Shown piece by piece: positions 46,602-57,770 of a stretch of DNA of 64,000 bases. Source of the DNA: Myxococcota bacterium (GTDB taxonomy: Bacteria > Myxococcota_A > UBA796 > CAJQPC01); NCBI GenBank assembly GCA_036229005.1, contig JAZAMN010000031.1, positions 96,001-160,000 on the forward strand, read 5' to 3'. Each line of letters begins with the position of its first letter. Position 1 is the first letter of the stretch. The notes beneath the pieces were generated by a model, which made no database searches, was not told where the DNA came from, and saw only the letters and a list, made by a program, of their open reading frames with translations. Made by a program: the position numbers and the translations under genes.

Positions 46602-47990
46602 GTGTCGGCACGCCATGGCAGCAGCCTGCTGCCCGTACATCGCGAAATTTCCGTCTCCGACGTCTTCATCCTCGCCTGGCCGATCATGGTCAGCATGCTC
46701 TCCCGCACCGCCATGACCACGGCGGACTCCCTGTTCGTGGGCCAGCTCGGCACCACGCCCATGGCCGCCGTGGGCCTGGGCGGCGTGGCCACCTGGTTCG
46801 GCCTCTCCTTCGGGATGGGCCTGCTGTCCTCGGTACAGGTCTCCGTCGCAAAGCGTGTGGGTGCCGCCCGCTTCGAGGTGGTGCGCCGCCTGCTGTGGCA
46901 GGGCCTCTGGCTCGCTCTGGCTGTCGGCGTCCCCGTGGCGCTCGCCGGCTACAGCGGTCCCCTGCTCTTCCCCCTGATGGGCGCGGGCCCCGAGGCCACG
47001 GAGCTGGCCAGCAGCTACTTCTCGATCACTATGCTGGGCGCGCCCCTGACCTTCGTGAACGTGGCCCTGATGGGCTGGTTCCAGGGCCGCGGGGACACGC
47101 GCACGCCCATGGTCGCCACGGTGGGCGCCAACCTGCTGAACATCGCCCTGGACCCCCTGTTCATCTTTGGGTGGGGGCCCGTCCCGGCCGGTGGGATGCC
47201 CGGCGCGGCCATCGCGACGGTGCTCTCGGTGGGCGTGTCCGTGGCCTTCCTGGCCTGGCGGGCCTGGCCCATGGCCGGCGCCCTGGTGCGTCCCATCCCC
47301 GCCCTGCTGCGCTCCATGTGGCGGGTCGGGTTCCCGGTGGGCGTGCAGTGGACCCTGGATGTCGCCAGCTTCCTGGCCTTCGTGTCCGTGCTCGCGCACG
47401 CCGGAGAGGCCCACCTCGCCGCCCACGTGATCGCCATCCGCATCGTCTCGATCAGCTTCCTGCCGGGCCACGCCGCGGGGGAGGCCGCCGGGGTGATGGT
47501 GGGGCAGGCCCTGGGCTCCAAGCGTCCCGAGAAGGCGCGCGAGGCCTGGCGGGCCGGGACCCGACTGGCGGTGCTGGTCATGGCCAGCGCGTCCCTGTTC
47601 TTTGTCATCTCCCCCACCACCCTGGTGTCCCTGTTCGGCGCCGAAGAGCAGGTGCTCTACATCGGCGGCAGCCTCGTGCTCGTGGCCGCGGGCTTCCAGA
47701 TCTTCGACGGCGTCGCGATGGTGGCGCTCTCCGCACTGCGCGGGGCCGGGGACACGCGCTGGCCCATGGTCGTGTGCGCCCTCAGCTCCTGGCTGATCAA
47801 GATCCCCGCGGGGGTCCTGTTGGCCCTGCCCCTGGGTCTGGGCGCGGCCGGCGCCTGGATGGGGCTGACGGTGGAGATCGCGGTGCTCGCGGCCCTCGCG
47901 GTCTGGCGGATCCAGGGCACGCGCTGGCTGACGGTGTCCTCGCCGGCGCCCAGAAAGCGCACCCGAGTGAAGGCGGTAGCCGCCGCGTGA
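46602..47990 (+). CDS. MATE family efflux transporter
   Basis: SD GGAGGT; LAWP, D-FVGQLG-AAVG, G-GDTRTP, NIALDPLFIFG, FQIFDG, LRGAGDT. Confidence 0.9.
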   Translation: MSARHGSSLLPVHREISVSDVFILAWPIMVSMLSRTAMTTADSLFVGQLGTTPMAAVGLGGVATWFGLSFGMGLLSSVQVSVAKRVGAARFEVVRRLLWQGLWLALAVGVPVALAGYSGPLLFPLMGAGPEATELASSYFSITMLGAPLTFVNVALMGWFQGRGDTRTPMVATVGANLLNIALDPLFIFGWGPVPAGGMPGAAIATVLSVGVSVAFLAWRAWPMAGALVRPIPALLRSMWRVGFPVGVQWTLDVASFLAFVSVLAHAGEAHLAAHVIAIRIVSISFLPGHAAGEAAGVMVGQALGSKRPEKAREAWRAGTRLAVLVMASASLFFVISPTTLVSLFGAEEQVLYIGGSLVLVAAGFQIFDGVAMVALSALRGAGDTRWPMVVCALSSWLIKIPAGVLLALPLGLGAAGAWMGLTVEIAVLAALAVWRIQGTRWLTVSSPAPRKRTRVKAVAAA

Positions 47991-49381: not shown

Positions 49382-49467
49382 GGGGCGGGATCGGCCTTTG
49401 GCTAGGAAGCCGCGGGGATTCCGGGGAGGCGATTCGCGGGCACCTTGGGGCTCCAACTGGAGACCCC

Positions 49468-50694
49468 ATGCTGCTGCTTCTCGCAATGTTCGCCTGCACC
49501 GACGACCCCACCGGAGACAGCGGACCTCTGTCCACTGACGACACCGCCAGCGAGGACACCGGTCCCCAGGACACCGGTCCCCAGGACACGGGACCCCAGG
49601 ACACGGGTGACGGCCCGGTCGACGCCGACGGGGACGGCTACACCGAGGGCGAGGACTGCGACGACAGCGACCCCGCGGTACACCCCGGCGCGACCGAGGT
49701 CTGCGACGGGCGGGACAACGACTGCGACGCCAGCACCACCGAGAGCGGCGTGTACCTGGAGCTCGCCAGCGGCGGCATCGACTACAGCGCCGAGTTCTCC
49801 GCCGCGAGCCCGGCCAACATCGCGCTCTTGGAGTCGGCCACCCTGCATGTGTGCCCCGGGCGCTGGACGGGCCGCCTGCTCACCGCCAGCGACCTGAGCG
49901 TGGTCGGCCACGGCGGCACCCCCGAGGAGATCGTGCTGGACGCCGTGGCCGCCGGGACCCTCCTGAGCCTGCGGGGCGCGGGGAGCACGGTGCAGCTCAG
50001 CGGGCTGACCCTGGAGAACGGGGCCACCTCTCCCCAGGACAGCCAGGAGTTCGGCGGGGGCGCCTACCGGGGCGCGGGGGGCATCGGCTGCCTGTCCAAT
50101 GGGGCGCGGCACAGCCTGACCCTGGACAACGTGCGCCTGGACGACAACCTGGGGGAGGCCGGCGGCGCGATCACCCTGGAGTCCTGCGACCTGAGCGCCA
50201 CCGGCGTGGAGATCAACGGCTCGCAGGCCACCGTGGGCGGCGCCATCTTCGCCTTGGACTCGAACGTGGAGCTGACGGACAGCAGCCTGCAGGAGAACAG
50301 CGCCAACACCACCGGCGGCGCGATCCACATGGAGGCCGGCGGCAGCGCCGACACCCTGATCTTGACGGGGGTGACGATGGCCTTGAACACCGCCGTCGGC
50401 CAGGGCGGCGCCGTGCGCATCGCCGGCGGGGTCAACCTGGACTGCAGCGACAGCAGCTTCACGTACAACCTGAGCAGGACCAGCCTGGCGTCCACGGTCA
50501 TCAGCAACCAAGGCGGAGGCATCCTCTCGGCCGGCTGCAGCCTGGGACAGGCCGGGGCGCTGGGGGACAACGGCGTGGTGGAGGTCCACCTGGAGGACTC
50601 GGGCAAGCTCTACCAGGGCGGCGACAACGTCGACTTTGCCTGCGACGCGGACGCGTGCACCGGGGACCTGAGCGAGGTGCGGGTCAAGGGCTGA
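49468..50694 (+). CDS. Lipoprotein with Cys/Asp metal-binding motif and beta-helix (paralog 1)
   Basis: FAC lipobox; DTGPQ repeats; DCDDSD-HPGATEVCDGRDNDC; TLHVCPG; GGAI repeats. Confidence 0.75.
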   Translation: MLLLLAMFACTDDPTGDSGPLSTDDTASEDTGPQDTGPQDTGPQDTGDGPVDADGDGYTEGEDCDDSDPAVHPGATEVCDGRDNDCDASTTESGVYLELASGGIDYSAEFSAASPANIALLESATLHVCPGRWTGRLLTASDLSVVGHGGTPEEIVLDAVAAGTLLSLRGAGSTVQLSGLTLENGATSPQDSQEFGGGAYRGAGGIGCLSNGARHSLTLDNVRLDDNLGEAGGAITLESCDLSATGVEINGSQATVGGAIFALDSNVELTDSSLQENSANTTGGAIHMEAGGSADTLILTGVTMALNTAVGQGGAVRIAGGVNLDCSDSSFTYNLSRTSLASTVISNQGGGILSAGCSLGQAGALGDNGVVEVHLEDSGKLYQGGDNVDFACDADACTGDLSEVRVKG

Positions 50695-51151
50695 GCGGGC
50701 GCTCCAGGCGGACCATGCCCTTGTCGGGCACCCGCAGGACGATCTGGAATCCGCGGGCCTCGAAGAGGCGGATCAGAGGGGTGTTGTCCTGGTCGGTGTT
50801 CGTGGCCAGGACGCCGGCCCCCTGTGCGCTCAGCCAGTCCTCGCCGGCGTCGAGCAGTGCAGAGGCTGTGCCGCGCCGACGGGCGAGGGGGTGGACCCAG
50901 GTGGTGGCATAGAGCCCCACCTCCTCCTCCTCCATCCGGAGCTGGGTGTAGCCGAGCAGCTTGTCGCCTTCGAGGGCCAGCAGCACGCGCCCGTGCTCGA
51001 TGTGCCAGCGCACCCGGTCCTGGAGCCAGGCGGGGGTGTACATGTCAGCGCCGCGCTCGCCCAGCACCTCGAGCAGGGTGTCGGCCATGCGCTCGGCGAT
51101 GGTGGGGACATGGGGGGAGCCCGGGTCGACAAGCGACGTGATTTCAAGCAC
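50684..51151 (-). CDS. GNAT acetyltransferase; start uncertain
   Basis: WVHP-RRRG-A-LL, N-LF-GF. Confidence 0.8.
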   Translation of the reverse strand: MLEITSLVDPGSPHVPTIAERMADTLLEVLGERGADMYTPAWLQDRVRWHIEHGRVLLALEGDKLLGYTQLRMEEEEVGLYATTWVHPLARRRGTASALLDAGEDWLSAQGAGVLATNTDQDNTPLIRLFEARGFQIVLRVPDKGMVRLERPLSP

Positions 51152-51231
51152 TTGATTTCCATGTGGGACGGGCGAAGGGTGCGCGGAGGGCGGCCATCGG
51201 GTCAGATGGAGGCATCAACCGAGGTCGACAA

Positions 51232-52473
51232 ATGCTCCTTCTCCTCTCCCTTATCGCGTGCACCAAGGACTCCGGCGACACCGCCGACACCGGCTGCGAG
51301 GCCCCCCTGACCCTGTTCACCGACGCGGACGGCGACGGCTTCGGCGACGACGCGACCCAGGTGGAGGCCTGCGAGGCGGCCGCGGATCAGGTCGAGCAGG
51401 GCGGCGACTGCGATGACGGCGACGGGGCCGTGAACCCCGATGCCACCGAGTTCTGCGACGGGATCGACAACGACTGCGACGGCGCCCCCGAGGCCGGCGC
51501 CGCCTGGGAGGCCGCCGACGGCACCTGGACCGACTGGAGCGACACCCTGGCCGCCGGCACCGAGGCCAGCCCCGCAGCCATCACCTTGAGCGAGGCGGGC
51601 ACCCTGCACGTCTGCCCCGGCACCCACTACGTGAACCTGAGCTCCGGCGTCTCCACCGGCGTGGTCGGCCACGGCGCCAGCGCATCGGACGTCGTCCTCA
51701 ATGGCGGCGGCGTGGGTCGGGTCCTGGACTTGGAGGGCAGTGGCTTGACCCACAGCGTCCAGGGCGTGCAGCTCACCAACGGTACCAACCCAGACGAGTT
51801 TGACGACGAGAAGCCCAGCGCGGGCGGCATCAGCTGCAACGCCGACGACCTGGACACAACCCTGACGCTGGCCCAGGTCGAGCTGACCGACAACCAGGGC
51901 TACCTGGGCGGCAACCTGGCCCTCATGGGCTGCGACACCACGGTCGACGACAGCACTCTGAGCGGTGGTGAGGCCGAGATCGGCGGCGGTGTCGCGCTGC
52001 TCGCCGGAGACCTGACCCTGAACAACAGCAGCATCACCGGCAACAGCGGCGCTGAGGGCGGCGGCGGGATCCTCGCCCTCCCCTACACCTCGGAGGCCCC
52101 CGTCGTGACGCTGAACGACAGCCTGGTGGCGGACAACACCACCGAAGAGGTGGGCGGCGGCGCCATGCTGCTCAGCGCCGAGCTGGTCTGCACCAGCAGC
52201 GATGGGGGAGAGCACGGCCTCCTGCGGAACAGCGCGGGGACCGGCTCCGCCATCTTCGGTGCCGCGGGGTTCGTCGGGAACGAGGACGGGCCGGTCTATG
52301 CCGCTGTGGACAGCCAGGGCTGCGACTTCGGCGTCGACAGCAGCGACAACACCCAGAGCTTCGACATCTGGTTCGAGGGGCTGCAGTACACGGCCGAGGA
52401 CAACGCCGACTTCAGCTGCGCCGAGACCAACTGCTCCGGCGACGTCGAGATCGTCAAGGAGGTCAAGAAGTAG
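51232..52473 (+). CDS. Lipoprotein with Cys/Asp metal-binding motif and beta-helix (paralog 2)
   Basis: IAC lipobox; DADGDGFGD, DCDD-VNP-E-CDGIDNDC, TLHVCPG, GEHG-LRN, CDFG. Confidence 0.75.
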   Translation: MLLLLSLIACTKDSGDTADTGCEAPLTLFTDADGDGFGDDATQVEACEAAADQVEQGGDCDDGDGAVNPDATEFCDGIDNDCDGAPEAGAAWEAADGTWTDWSDTLAAGTEASPAAITLSEAGTLHVCPGTHYVNLSSGVSTGVVGHGASASDVVLNGGGVGRVLDLEGSGLTHSVQGVQLTNGTNPDEFDDEKPSAGGISCNADDLDTTLTLAQVELTDNQGYLGGNLALMGCDTTVDDSTLSGGEAEIGGGVALLAGDLTLNNSSITGNSGAEGGGGILALPYTSEAPVVTLNDSLVADNTTEEVGGGAMLLSAELVCTSSDGGEHGLLRNSAGTGSAIFGAAGFVGNEDGPVYAAVDSQGCDFGVDSSDNTQSFDIWFEGLQYTAEDNADFSCAETNCSGDVEIVKEVKK

Positions 52474-52501
52474 CGGGGGCGCAGAACCCGCATCGCAACG
52501 C

Positions 52502-52527
52502 GCTGGGGAAGCCCCCCTTTCCCCAGC
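52502..52527 (+). terminator. Hairpin after paralog 2, no U-tract
   Basis: GCTGGGGAA-N8-TTCCCCAGC. Confidence 0.35.
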
Positions 52528-52608
52528 ACAACCCCACGGTGAGAGATGGCCGTAGGGTGCGACGTGGGCAGGCGGCGGCAATTGGTGGGGTCAAAGGAGA
52601 CCCCAACC

Positions 52609-53837
<1,229 letters not shown>

Positions 53838-53841
<4 letters not shown>

Positions 53842-53888
53842 GCCCCGAGACCGAGCCCAAGGCTGAGCCCCAAGGCTGAGCCCCAAGG
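53838..53888 (+). repeat. Four tandem ~13-bp repeats (CTGAGCCCCAAGG consensus)
   Basis: Units at 53838, 53851, 53863, 53876; last two identical. Confidence 0.8.
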
Positions 53889-53923
53889 CTCGGTGGAACG
53901 CAGAGGGGGCGCGGTCGAGATAG

Positions 53924-53951
53924 GGAACCGCACTCCCCCTTGGACCGTGTA
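53924..53951 (+). promoter_or_regulatory. Putative ECF promoter upstream of the sigma gene
   Basis: GGAACC-N16-CGTGTA, ending 9 nt before ATG 53961. Confidence 0.7.
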
Positions 53952-53960
53952 CCCCTCTGC

Positions 53961-54482
53961 ATGTCCGCATCCCCCGCCCTACTGCTGGCCCAACAGGGCA
54001 ACCAGGCCGCCCGCGCCCAGCTCCTGCGCGAGCACGGCCCCGCCGTCTGGGGCCTCTGCCGCCGCCTGAGCGCCGAGCCCGAAGACGACTACCAGGCCAT
54101 CTGGCTCCACGCCCTGGCCCAACTGGACCGCTTCGACCCCGCCGGCCGCGCCAGCTTCCGCACCTGGCTGCTCACCCTGGCGCACCGCAAGCTCATCGAC
54201 GCCCACCGCAGCGCCGTCGTCCGCGGCCCCACCCTGGAGCCCGTCGAGCCCGCCCACGCGCCTGACCCCGAGCAGGATCTGGACCGCGCCCGCCAGCGCG
54301 CCCGCCTGGAGGCCGCCATCGCACAGCTCCCACCAGACCAGGCCCGCGTCGTCCTGCTGCACCACCTGCACGGCCAGCCCCTCTCCGCCATCGCCAAGGA
54401 GGAGGAGGTGGCTGTGGGCACCCTCAAGTCCCGACTGCACCGCGCCCGCGCCCGCCTGCTCACCCTCCTGGAGGACGCATGA
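53961..54482 (+). CDS. ECF sigma factor
   Basis: L-RFD-SFRTWL-A-ID-R; LP-Q-V-L-IA-GTLKSRLHRAR. Confidence 0.88.
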   Translation: MSASPALLLAQQGNQAARAQLLREHGPAVWGLCRRLSAEPEDDYQAIWLHALAQLDRFDPAGRASFRTWLLTLAHRKLIDAHRSAVVRGPTLEPVEPAHAPDPEQDLDRARQRARLEAAIAQLPPDQARVVLLHHLHGQPLSAIAKEEEVAVGTLKSRLHRARARLLTLLEDA

Positions 54483-55687
54483 CCCCAAGCGAGGACACCC
54501 TGGCCCAGCTCTCTGCGCTCCTGGACGGCGAGCTGCCCATGGATCAAGCGGAGGCCCTGCGCGCCCGCATCCAGGCGGAGCCCGAGCTCGCGGCTGCCTG
54601 GAACGCGCTGATGGATCTGGACGCCGGCCTGGCCGACCTGGAGCAGGCACCCCCGCCTCTGGAGCTGGACGCCCGGGTGCTGGAGCAGGCCAAGGGCCTG
54701 GAGCCCAAGCCGCTCAAGACCGGTCCCCTGCTGGACGTGCCCGCCGCGAAGGGCGCCCCCAAGTGGGCCTGGGGACTGCTCGCGGCCGGGCTGCTGCTGG
54801 CCGCCACGCCCCTGCTGGCCCTCACCGACTGGGCCCAGCCCGCCCCCCCCACCCTGCACCAGGCCAGCGGCCAGCAGGTGGTCCACGGCCCCGCGCTGGT
54901 GCTGCTCCCGGACGGGCGCGAGCTGGCGGTCTCGGGGCGCGTCTCGATCTCGGTGGAACCGCCGGCCCCCCTGCCCCGTGTAGAGGGTCAGGAGGTCGAG
55001 ATGAACCCGAAGATGTTGCTCGCTGCGGCCGCTGGAGCCGCGATCACCGTCGCTGTGTACGAAGGCAGCGCCACCCTGTCCGGACCCGAGGGCACCCAGG
55101 TGCTGGAGGCTGGAGACAGCAGCCGCGTGGGCCCGGATCGGGCCAGGGTGACCTCGCCTGTGCCACGGGGTGCAGAGCTTGCGGAGGGGACCCCGCAGGC
55201 GGAGCCGGAGGGCGCACCGGAGAGCACCGAGGCGCTCAAGGGTGAGCTGGAGCGTCTGCAGCTCCAGAATGACTTCCTCCAGGGACAGCTCACGGCGATG
55301 GGGGCCACCCCGAACCCCTGGCCCGAGGCGCTGGACGCCGCGTTCACGCCGGAGGCCTTCGAGGACACGGTCAGCGGGGCGCTGGCGGACTTCCCGGACG
55401 TGGAGCTGTTGGACGTGGACTGCAGCGAGTACCCCTGCGTGGCCATCTTCGAGGACCAGGGCGTGGAGAAGGGGCGCGAGAGCATGGAGGCCTTCCGGAC
55501 GGCGACCACCGACGCGCTGGGCGGCGACCTGAACTCCAGCGCGTGGGGCGCGCAGATCGAGACGGACCAGGGCTCCCGCTACGTCGAGGTCTGGGCGCTG
55601 ACGCCGGACACGGACATGAACAGCGGCAACGCGCGGCTGGACCTGCGGGCCAAGGACCTGCTGCAGGAGGAGCTGGACCGGGAGTAG
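54479..55687 (+). CDS. Anti-sigma factor (N-terminal ASD, TM helix, FecR-like periplasmic part)
   Basis: ATGA coupling; LSALLDGEL; TM WAWGLLAAGLLLAA; VAVYEG-VL-AG; DCSEYPC. Confidence 0.75.
   Translation: MTPSEDTLAQLSALLDGELPMDQAEALRARIQAEPELAAAWNALMDLDAGLADLEQAPPPLELDARVLEQAKGLEPKPLKTGPLLDVPAAKGAPKWAWGLLAAGLLLAATPLLALTDWAQPAPPTLHQASGQQVVHGPALVLLPDGRELAVSGRVSISVEPPAPLPRVEGQEVEMNPKMLLAAAAGAAITVAVYEGSATLSGPEGTQVLEAGDSSRVGPDRARVTSPVPRGAELAEGTPQAEPEGAPESTEALKGELERLQLQNDFLQGQLTAMGATPNPWPEALDAAFTPEAFEDTVSGALADFPDVELLDVDCSEYPCVAIFEDQGVEKGRESMEAFRTATTDALGGDLNSSAWGAQIETDQGSRYVEVWALTPDTDMNSGNARLDLRAKDLLQEELDRE
54955..54996 (+). promoter_or_regulatory. Intragenic copy of the ECF promoter plus SD inside the anti-sigma gene
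   Basis: GGAACC-N16-CGTGTA at 54955-54982; AGGAGGT at 54990-54996; in-frame ATG at 55001. Confidence 0.65.
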
Positions 55688-55697
55688 ACTCCCCGCC

Positions 55698-57770
55698 ATG
55701 AGCACCATCTCCCCCCCCGCGGTTCACGTCGCCGTCGCCTCCCTCAACCAGACCGTCGGCGACTGGGCCGGCAACCGGGACCGCATCCTGCGCGTGCTGG
55801 AGAAGGCCCGCGCGCGCGGCGTGCGGCTGATCGGCTTCCCCGAGATGTGCGTGTCGGGCTACTCGCTGGGGGACCGGCTGATGCGGCGCGGCACCCTGGA
55901 CCGGAGCTGGCGCGTGCTGGAGGAGGTCGCCCCCCACACCCGCGGCATGGTGGCCTGCCTGGGCCTGCCCGTGCGGCACCGGGGGGTGGTCTACAACGCG
56001 ACGGCGGTGATCGCGGACACCCGCATCGTGGGCCTGGTCTGCAAGGAGCACCTGGCCACCGGCGACGTCCAGTACGAGAACCGCTGGTACCACCCCTGGC
56101 CCCACGGCCAGGTCGACGAGTTCATCACCCACGACAACCAGCGGATCCCCATCGGGACGCTGTTCTTCCAGGCCCGCGGGCTGGGGCGCTTCGCCCTGGA
56201 GATCTGCGAGGACGGCTGGAAGGGCATCCGCCCGGGCTCCATCTACGCCCTGGCCGGCGCCGAGGTCATCCTGAACCCCTCGGCGAGCTGGTTCGTCATC
56301 GGCAAGCACCGCACCCGGCGCGCCCTGGTCGAGCAGCTCTCCCGCGAGGACCACTGCGCCTACCTCTACACCTCGCTGCTGGGCTGCGACAGCACCCGGC
56401 TGGTGTTCGACGGCAGCGTGTTCATCGGCCTGGACGGGCGCATCGACCAGGAAGGTCGGCGCATGCTGTTCACGGAAGACCACGAGCTCATCGACCAGAT
56501 CGTGGACCTGGACCAGCTCCGGCTGGTGCGCATGGAGGAGGGCTCCTGGCGCGAGCAGGTGCAGAGCTACACCAACGGGAACTACGGCCCCAAGCCGACG
56601 CTGATCGAGATCCCCGGGGACTTCACCTGCGCTGGCCACCCGCCCCCGGTGGGCCCCTACTGGGAGGCGGCGGCGCCCTCGCACATCGACCCCTCGCTGC
56701 AGTGGCTGGAGGACGCCGGCCTGGTCCCCACCATCACGCCGGCCGACCTGCCCCACCTGGAGCTGGAGCTGGCCCTGGCCCTGGGCATGCGCGACTACGT
56801 GGAGAAGTCCCACATCCGCGCACTGGCCCTGGCGCTCTCCGGCGGGCGCGACTCCGCGATGGTGGCCGTGCTGGTGCACCGCATGTTCCGCTACCACAAG
56901 CCCGAGCTCTCGGAGTCGGAGCTGCGGGACTACGTCCGCGCCCGCTTCGTGACCGCGTACCTGGCCACCGAGAACTCCGGGCCGGTCACGGAGAACGCCG
57001 CGCAGGTCCTCGCCGAGGCCACGGGAGCCAAGCACCATGTCTCGCGCATGCAGGACGCGGTCGATGTACACGTCCGGCTGGCGGGAGAGATGATCGGCTC
57101 CCCCCTCTCCTGGGACGACCCCGCGCACGACATCCCCCTGCAGAACGTGCAGGCACGGCTCCGGGGCAGCCTGATCTGGATGCTCGCGAACCTCCACGGC
57201 GCGCTGCTGCTGACCACCTCCAACAAGTCGGAGGCGGCGGTGGGCTACACGACCATGGACGGCGACACCAGCGGCGGCATCTCCCCCATCGCGGACGTGC
57301 CCAAGTCCCTGGTCTCCCTGTGGCTGACCTGGGCGCGGCGCTTTCATGGGCTCACCGCTCTGGACCCTGTGCTGGTCCAGCAACCCACCGCAGAGCTCCG
57401 TCCCCCCGGCGAGGAACAGACGGACGAGGGCGACCTGATGCCCTTCGGCATCCTGGACCGGCTGATGTACCAGTTCGTCCAGGCCGGGCAGGACCCCGTG
57501 GAGATCTTCCAGTCCCTGTGGCCCGCCCTGCAGGTGCACTACGGCCCCGAGCACCCCGAGCGCCTGGCCGCGGACATCCGGCGCTTCGTCACCCTGTTCT
57601 GCCGGGCCCAGTGGAAGCGCGAGCGCTTCGCCATCTCCTTCCGCGTCACCGCCTTTGACCTGGACCCCAAGACCGGCTTCCGCTTCCCGCCGGTCCAGGC
57701 CCCCTTCACCGAAGAGCTCGCCGAGCTGGACGCCCACGTCGCCCGCCTCGCCACCCAGGAGCAGTCATGA
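55698..57770 (+). CDS. nadE: Glutamine-dependent NAD+ synthetase
   Basis: Nitrilase-like triad FPE/K/EICED; SGGRDS; NVQAR-R; NKSE-GY-T-GD; PTAEL-Q-DE; QWKR. Confidence 0.9.
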   Translation: MSTISPPAVHVAVASLNQTVGDWAGNRDRILRVLEKARARGVRLIGFPEMCVSGYSLGDRLMRRGTLDRSWRVLEEVAPHTRGMVACLGLPVRHRGVVYNATAVIADTRIVGLVCKEHLATGDVQYENRWYHPWPHGQVDEFITHDNQRIPIGTLFFQARGLGRFALEICEDGWKGIRPGSIYALAGAEVILNPSASWFVIGKHRTRRALVEQLSREDHCAYLYTSLLGCDSTRLVFDGSVFIGLDGRIDQEGRRMLFTEDHELIDQIVDLDQLRLVRMEEGSWREQVQSYTNGNYGPKPTLIEIPGDFTCAGHPPPVGPYWEAAAPSHIDPSLQWLEDAGLVPTITPADLPHLELELALALGMRDYVEKSHIRALALALSGGRDSAMVAVLVHRMFRYHKPELSESELRDYVRARFVTAYLATENSGPVTENAAQVLAEATGAKHHVSRMQDAVDVHVRLAGEMIGSPLSWDDPAHDIPLQNVQARLRGSLIWMLANLHGALLLTTSNKSEAAVGYTTMDGDTSGGISPIADVPKSLVSLWLTWARRFHGLTALDPVLVQQPTAELRPPGEEQTDEGDLMPFGILDRLMYQFVQAGQDPVEIFQSLWPALQVHYGPEHPERLAADIRRFVTLFCRAQWKRERFAISFRVTAFDLDPKTGFRFPPVQAPFTEELAELDAHVARLATQEQS

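Follow-up and report, generated by a model that had tools for sequence, protein, structure and literature searches.

The anti-sigma factor gene of an ECF sigma/anti-sigma pair in a Myxococcota bacterium (UBA796; CAJQPC01) contains a second copy of the predicted promoter that precedes the sigma gene, and this internal copy is real and strongly selected at synonymous sites. Because the promoter copy is accompanied by a ribosome-binding site and an in-frame start inside the anti-sigma gene, active sigma likely makes a second mRNA. Judged from the sequence and its conservation, this second sigma-driven transcript and a short protein translated from it are very probably made. The pair lies in assembly GCA_036229005.1, contig JAZAMN010000031.1, of which positions 96,001–160,000 of the forward strand were analysed (a stretch of 64,000 nt, called the window below; coordinates are those of the window). 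Its features are as follows.

53924–53951, + strand: upstream predicted autoregulatory ECF promoter, GGAACC-N16-CGTGTA (GGAACC at 53924–53929, CGTGTA at 53946–53951)
53961–54482, + strand: ECF sigma factor, 173 aa from ATG (Pfam Sigma70_r2 and r4_2 above cut-off; TIGR02937)
54479–55687, + strand: full-length membrane anti-sigma factor, 402 aa (two structure models; weak match to NF052375, below cut-off)
54479–54640, + strand: class I anti-sigma (sigma-binding) helical domain, residues ~1–54 (model alignment; absent from the short form)
54761–54829, + strand: predicted transmembrane helix, residues 95–117 (model helix; hydrophobicity across 161 homologues)
54842–55129, + strand: FecR-like periplasmic beta domain, residues 122–217 (model alignment to PupR; profile match to the sister family)
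54955–54982, + strand: internal promoter copy in codons V159-E160-P161...R167-V168 (GGAACC at 54955–54960, 16 nt, CGTGTA at 54977–54982)
54990–54996, + strand: Shine-Dalgarno (SD) sequence AGGAGGT, where the short transcript is predicted to begin (SD pairing energy in 48 loci)
55001–55687, + strand: predicted short in-frame product, 228 aa, from Met175 (conserved Met, SD and spacing)
55001–55072, + strand: signal-like N-terminus of the short form, ending in G-x-A198 (length, charge and hydrophobicity in homologues)
55220–55681, + strand: long helix (248–273) and ferredoxin-like domain with Cys315 and Cys320 (model; both Cys conserved)
55698–57770, + strand: glutamine-dependent NAD synthetase gene (nadE), a local neighbour (Pfam)

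Two copies of one predicted promoter at the locus

The duplicated promoter boxes, the SD and the in-frame ATG at 55001 were all confirmed where the original prediction had placed them. The internal -10 box, CGTGTA, ends 18 nt before the SD-led ATG. The upstream copy ends only 9 nt before the ATG of the sigma gene, so that a near-leaderless sigma mRNA is predicted; the alternative TTG start of the sigma gene at 53940 falls within the promoter. By Pfam the sigma factor consists of regions 2 and 4 only, and its stop codon overlaps the anti-sigma start codon as ATGA. Short GCTGAGCCC-type repeats lie between the stop codon of the upstream gene and the sigma promoter (53843–53890), and three tandem similar genes at 49400–53841 encode acidic secreted or lipoprotein-like proteins, the last with a MopE-type metal-binding motif. 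A transporter gene at 46602–47990, which we take to be MATE-like, was also seen near the pair, as it was at L004, L006, L008 and L025.

The two copies at this locus are the only occurrences of the exact GGAACC-N16-CGTGTA sequence in the 6.4 Mb genome. A looser form of the motif gave four matches in the window against 1.54 expected, a number reached by 6 of 100 shuffles and not significant alone, and a reversed-pattern control matched 0 to 8 times in each of 22 genomes. The bare motif count therefore proves little, and the evidence is carried by position and conservation.

The internal promoter is conserved at synonymous sites

Homologues were collected from 22 genomes of the family, the genome collection and metagenomes, yielding 72 loci, which were reduced to 48 by removal of 10 duplicates, 11 loci without the core motif by pattern and 3 fragments (L053, L070 and L072). 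The 11 loci dropped for the motif comprised L007 and L045, later found to carry the element, and nine partial or stand-alone matches. The carriers are a large group of uncultured myxobacteria, and the median pairwise protein identity among the 48 loci was 33%, with four pairs above 80%. The sigma gene lies upstream of the anti-sigma gene in 44 of the 48 loci, contig ends cutting the remaining four. Ahead of the sigma gene, a GGAACC-type box, N15/16 and CGT were found in 42 of the 44 loci with the sigma in view, which bears out the autoregulatory ECF promoter proposed there. Autoregulation of ECF sigmas through -35 AAC/-10 CGT promoters is established, and by this precedent we infer that the sigma recognises both promoter copies.

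Conservation at synonymous sites was then the check on the internal copy, and the boxes, the SD and the Met all proved to be conserved. GGAACC-N16-CGT preceded the internal Met in 42 of the 48 loci, compared with 0.24 loci expected when each protein was recoded with synonymous codons. The codon for Val159 was GTG in 44/45 loci (47% background in the same genes), that for Glu160 was GAA in 43/44 (15% background) and that for Arg167 was CGT in 44/44 (8% background). In contrast, control columns, likewise conserved, stayed near background, both for Glu (GAA in 7/43 at E317 and 18/43 at E195) and for Arg (CGT in 2/43 at R386 and 1/43 at R390). Among 15 further loci outside the 48, the element was present in 12, had CGA for CGT in one and was absent in two. 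At the protein level the VEP-x5-R motif was found in 138 of 162 proteins. E160, P161 and R167 are conserved residues, but the idea that V-E-P and R are kept for structure and merely spell a promoter is refuted by the recoding expectation and has a negligible chance of being right, the codon choice being fixed at rare codons in a loop of low model confidence (pLDDT ~60).

Rare box variants were in some cases common to both copies of a locus (TGAACC in L059, CGTAG in L069, CGA in L096). The last three -10 bases were equal between copies in 11/38 loci against 5.7 by permutation (kinship uncorrected), and one position alone showed no covariation (p 0.28); the between-copy covariation rests on single events and is uncorrected for kinship or for six tests. 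Decayed loci were also encountered. L005 has a truncated anti-sigma gene and has lost both promoter copies and the SD, while at L018 the sigma gene is missing and the promoter runs directly into a broken anti-sigma gene; P0007 was counted among the decayed loci with these.

The internal start and the predicted short form

Met occupies the column of the internal Met175 in 151/162 proteins. SD pairing energy at this start had a median of -10.65 kcal/mol in the 48 loci versus -4.95 kcal/mol for 302 other in-frame ATGs, with a slight bias in favour of this result where two Met codons were near each other and the better SD was taken. The distance from the -10 box to the ATG was 18 or 21 nt in 39/42 loci, and the predicted leader of the short mRNA is 12–15 nt. 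The SD, the Met and the signal-like segment that follows persist at loci without the promoter. In one RNA run, a single contig of 241 nt (55194–55434, depth 2.3) fell within the short frame; contigs show neither start nor strand, and this one is therefore no evidence for an internal start.

The short frame lacks the sigma-binding domain and the first membrane helix. From Met175 it runs for 24 residues to A198 in 103 of 151 proteins, the first six residues carry a net charge of 0 or +1 in 146/151, and the hydrophobicity of this N-terminus is close to that of the first membrane helix. The homologue hydrophobicity and charge, together with the structure models, bear out the proposal that the short form has a signal-like start and no inhibitory domain. 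After the hydrophobic stretch, Gly196 is present in 162/162 and Ala198 in 159/162 proteins. By the (-3,-1) rule of signal peptidase sites, a cut of the short form after G-x-A198 is possible; alternatively, the conservation of A198 may reflect packing in the beta domain. In the sister family described below, the position of A198 is mostly Val.

Domain anatomy of the anti-sigma factor

Two structure models of the 402-aa protein were examined (mean pLDDT 80 and 83). The N-terminal domain aligned to RsiW (5wuq, Z 6.7–7.0), MucA (8z6g) and RseA (1or7) at middling Z values of 5–7. The beta domain (122–217) aligned to PupR (Z 7.8–8.4; 6ovm at Z 7.8, rmsd 1.8 over 70 residues) and to 4m0h, and the C-terminal ferredoxin-like domain aligned to periplasmic GspL/XcpY (6ghu, Z 8.3–8.7) and to PilO; fold-alignment Z values of 7 to 9 border on what the tool states to be significant. 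No Foldseek match reached E 0.001, and the Atlas returned unnamed Myxococcota clusters only, under 0.9.

The beta domain has a loop and a helix (161–187) inserted in one hairpin, and the promoter, SD and Met all sit in this low-confidence insertion. The corresponding hairpin stretch is 22–27 residues long in ordinary FecR domains and 37–48 residues long in the GT-bearing sister family. Gly153 is followed by Arg rather than Thr, and G-T is kept in 8 of 162 proteins. Pfam FecR gave no match in any of 18 proteins of the family to which this anti-sigma factor belongs (the main family). Between the main family and the GT-bearing FecR sister family there was a 97% profile match over 40 columns.

A linker and then the long helix (248–273) precede the ferredoxin-like domain, whose Cys315 and Cys320 are both present in 161 of 162 proteins, and the conserved Cys pair fits a periplasmic disulfide. 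Stand-alone genes that combine a hydrophobic N-terminus, a long helix and the same Cys-bearing domain were also seen (L017:1255-1926 on the minus strand, L012, L013, L014 and L019). One stand-alone gene of this C-terminal layout lies in the genome studied here and the others in related genomes; no matching promoter was seen upstream of the stand-alone genes.

A sister family keeps both the Gly-Thr motif and an internal start

The sister family was found by profile search in 301 genomes of the phylum and sits in other classes. It has the G-T motif in 52/55 loci, and many of its proteins match Pfam FecR (PF04773). The same promoter motif lies upstream of the sigma gene in 45 of the 51 loci with enough flank. 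An internal Met with basic and hydrophobic segments was found in 54 of 55 readable proteins (of 58). The SD at the first such ATG had a median of -8.0 versus -3.7 for 325 other ATGs, and the internal ATGs had an SD at -6 or lower in 42/48. An internal promoter was present in 8 of 61 sister genes against 0.99 expected. These promoters occupy three positions relative to the Gly codon, in four genera: -55 nt (L107, L110, L143 and L145), -18 nt (L108 and L150) and +27 nt (L149 and L151). In L149 and L151 the promoter lies in an insertion of the same hairpin as in the main family, with the -35 box in another codon phase. L116 is a sister gene with a sigma promoter at -112. A weight-matrix scan of the 61 sister genes recovered the eight and found no weaker promoter in the rest (median p 0.50).

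The sister family decides the fate of one earlier proposal, namely that the insert is a genetically encoded split taking the place of Gly-Thr self-cleavage. The internal start lies 22 residues past the Gly position and no stop codon frees the N-terminal half. The sister family, moreover, keeps the G-T motif together with the internal start and, in the 8 carriers, with an internal promoter as well; the element is therefore no substitute for self-cleavage, and we rejected this candidate.

In a quick tree of the sigma factors, from which 8 loci were left out for lack of a sigma match, the eight sister carriers were split over four groups, and those main-family members that lack the promoter branched among carriers. 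The internal promoter is missing in ~7 of 51 loci in the tree and in 53 of the 61 sister genes, and is thus dispensable. The simplest history, as reconstructed from these sequences, would be an old internal start onto which the promoter was gained several times, to be fixed in this clade and sometimes lost. The eight sister carriers are not independent, so that they are only suggestive of repeated gain. As a separate observation, the G-T-C-F motif of the sister family (L103-L185) is written with TGT for 30 of 60 Cys and TTT for 27 of 61 Phe codons, compared with a 12% background; these rare codons, immediately 5' of the internal start, may serve to keep this region open.

No conserved extra product beyond the predicted short form was found

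No neighbour beyond the sigma/anti-sigma pair was widely conserved in the 1.5–4 kb flanks of the 48 loci, and no conserved TonB-dependent transducer was found in these flanks, though an unlinked one may exist elsewhere. A regulon search with near-exact boxes, which can miss weaker targets, detected no excess of promoter sites in the genome studied here or in 22 genomes. This genome contains 26 looser sites, nearly all inside or opposite open reading frames and none convincing as a second target, and 610 kb of flanks contained 4 extra promoter sites. A palindrome, presumably parS-like, overlaps a loose promoter match near 106430 of G000:C16. With no conserved neighbour and no excess of sites, the short form is the sole conserved extra product found.

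The downstream gene nadE had been put forward as a possible target of the sigma. Here it starts 10 nt past the anti-sigma stop codon, and read-through from the internal promoter is plausible in this genome. Nevertheless, nadE is next to the pair in only 6 of 48 loci. Of the 38 promoter-bearing loci with sufficient flank, ~20 have a following gene encoded on the opposite strand, 17 have one in the same orientation and 1 is unclear, as judged by a rough codon-score call. We consider nadE incidental because the next gene so often faces the other way. As a general explanation, a role of the internal promoter in expressing nadE or other downstream genes is contradicted and extremely improbable; the upstream promoter would already cover nadE, and the internal one is located 18–21 nt before the internal start.

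Proposed mechanism and alternatives

We propose the following sequence of events. At rest, the full-length anti-sigma factor, translationally coupled to the sigma gene, would hold the sigma at the membrane. An envelope signal sensed via the C-terminal module would lead to proteolysis and free the sigma, which would fire both promoters. The short mRNA, with its brief leader and strong SD, would then give the 228-aa form in excess. The new N-terminus, which in the long form is buried as a helix and a strand, would act as a signal peptide and probably be cut after G-x-A198. The free module would bind what the sensor binds, and would thus be the output of a very small regulon and at the same time its brake, as RsiV is for lysozyme. 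We lean towards this output-and-brake function as our working hypothesis on two grounds, the lack of any other regulon member in our searches and the existence of stand-alone relatives. The whole chain, in which the sigma induces an exported C-terminal module and this module, binding the inducing signal or partner, dampens the loop, appears to us slightly better than an even prospect.

Of the beta domain the short form retains only half, and this could instead be a sign that it pairs with the long form. In the main rival of the output-and-brake reading, the short form in the membrane or periplasm would pair with the long form or its N-terminal remnant, by shared beta strands or the long helix, shield it from proteolysis and reset the switch. 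The half that it carries comprises strands 188–217, and in dimers of GspL/PilO-like domains a long helix precedes each domain; both facts are in keeping with such pairing. Against it, a cut after A198 would remove key strands, the stand-alone relatives lack these strands, and the short form starts 22 residues past the usual cleavage position and so would not be the natural C-terminal fragment. What makes pairing the main rival is that the C-terminal fragment of E. coli FecR blocks cleavage of its N-terminal partner (PMC12036975); we regard it as possible though unlikely.

The short form might also amplify the response, competing for a stabilising partner or displacing the C-terminal part of the long form and thereby causing more activation. 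In the Fox system, the C-domain of the anti-sigma factor binds a receptor domain protecting it from proteolysis, and a free C-domain could remove such a protector (PMC11637429). An amplifier of this kind is improbable here, as no receptor or partner gene is conserved near these loci and the upstream promoter already gives positive feedback. An effect at the DNA or RNA level only, the internal element being a sigma decoy, a transcription roadblock or the source of a non-coding RNA with the second protein irrelevant, would suit the 17/42 loci with a predicted leader of only ~12 nt. It is highly improbable given the fixed spacing at which the SD, the Met and the signal-like segment are conserved, and their persistence at loci lacking the promoter.

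Relation to known systems

The system is an ECF sigma/class I membrane anti-sigma pair, FecR-like in fold but without the Gly-Thr motif in most members and without a linked receptor gene, and its wiring differs from that of all the known cases named here. In E. coli, the ECF sigma-dependent promoter rseAP3 lies inside the sigma gene and yields the whole anti-sigma factor (PMC8595263). The likeness lies in a promoter for the ECF sigma that is embedded in coding sequence of the sigma's own operon and directs an additional sigma-dependent transcript; unlike rseAP3, the promoter described here is in the anti-sigma gene and its predicted product lacks the sigma-binding domain.

FecR, FoxR and PupR share with the main family an anti-sigma domain, one membrane helix and a FecR-like beta domain and, in logic, a separate C-terminal fragment; loss of this fragment in E. 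coli FecR gives constitutive activation (PMC12036975). In those proteins the fragment is made 1:1 by Gly-Thr self-cleavage, whereas the main family mostly lacks G-T. It further differs from them in its inserted start and signal-like helix, its GspL/PilO-like end and the lack of a conserved TonB-dependent receptor nearby. The outer domain of Bacillus RsiV, which is induced by its sigma, both senses and inhibits the inducer lysozyme and is released by signal peptidase (PMC5014341). The free domain of RsiV comes from cleavage of the full protein, unlike the separate short form predicted here, and the likeness is one of logic. The myxobacterial DdvA has different periplasmic domains (PMC11506125).

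Shortened isoforms from internal starts offer another comparison. E. coli ArcB-C is an in-frame internal-start isoform (10.1101/520783) and, like the short form, an N-terminally shortened product of a conserved internal SD and start. For internal-start isoforms such as ArcB-C no dedicated promoter is described in the sources at hand and a signal sequence is mostly lost, whereas here the internal start would create a signal sequence and the promoter belongs to the cognate sigma. Tn5 Inh is an N-terminally shortened internal-start isoform with its own promoter. In the literature searched, mostly outside subscription journals, no report was found of an anti-sigma gene within which the promoter of the cognate ECF sigma drives a shortened, exported form, and the arrangement is apparently undescribed.

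Significance

The picture that we marginally favour is a self-contained ECF circuit whose main output would be a piece of its own anti-sigma factor, with a buried helix and strand becoming an export signal, and whose wiring would have arisen several times in Myxococcota, at different codons, on an older internal start. Protein, promoter and ribosome site are encoded here in a single stretch, an unusually clean example of such overlap, and the promoter has apparently been gained repeatedly; the predictions are exact to a few bases and testable in a laboratory host. If the reading is true, deleting an anti-sigma gene or tagging its C-terminus in such systems would report on two proteins rather than one. 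It would also be a new ECF wiring, in which one gene gives both an inhibitor and a sigma-controlled exported form unable to inhibit, and it offers an answer to the question of what ECF pairs without a visible regulon induce.
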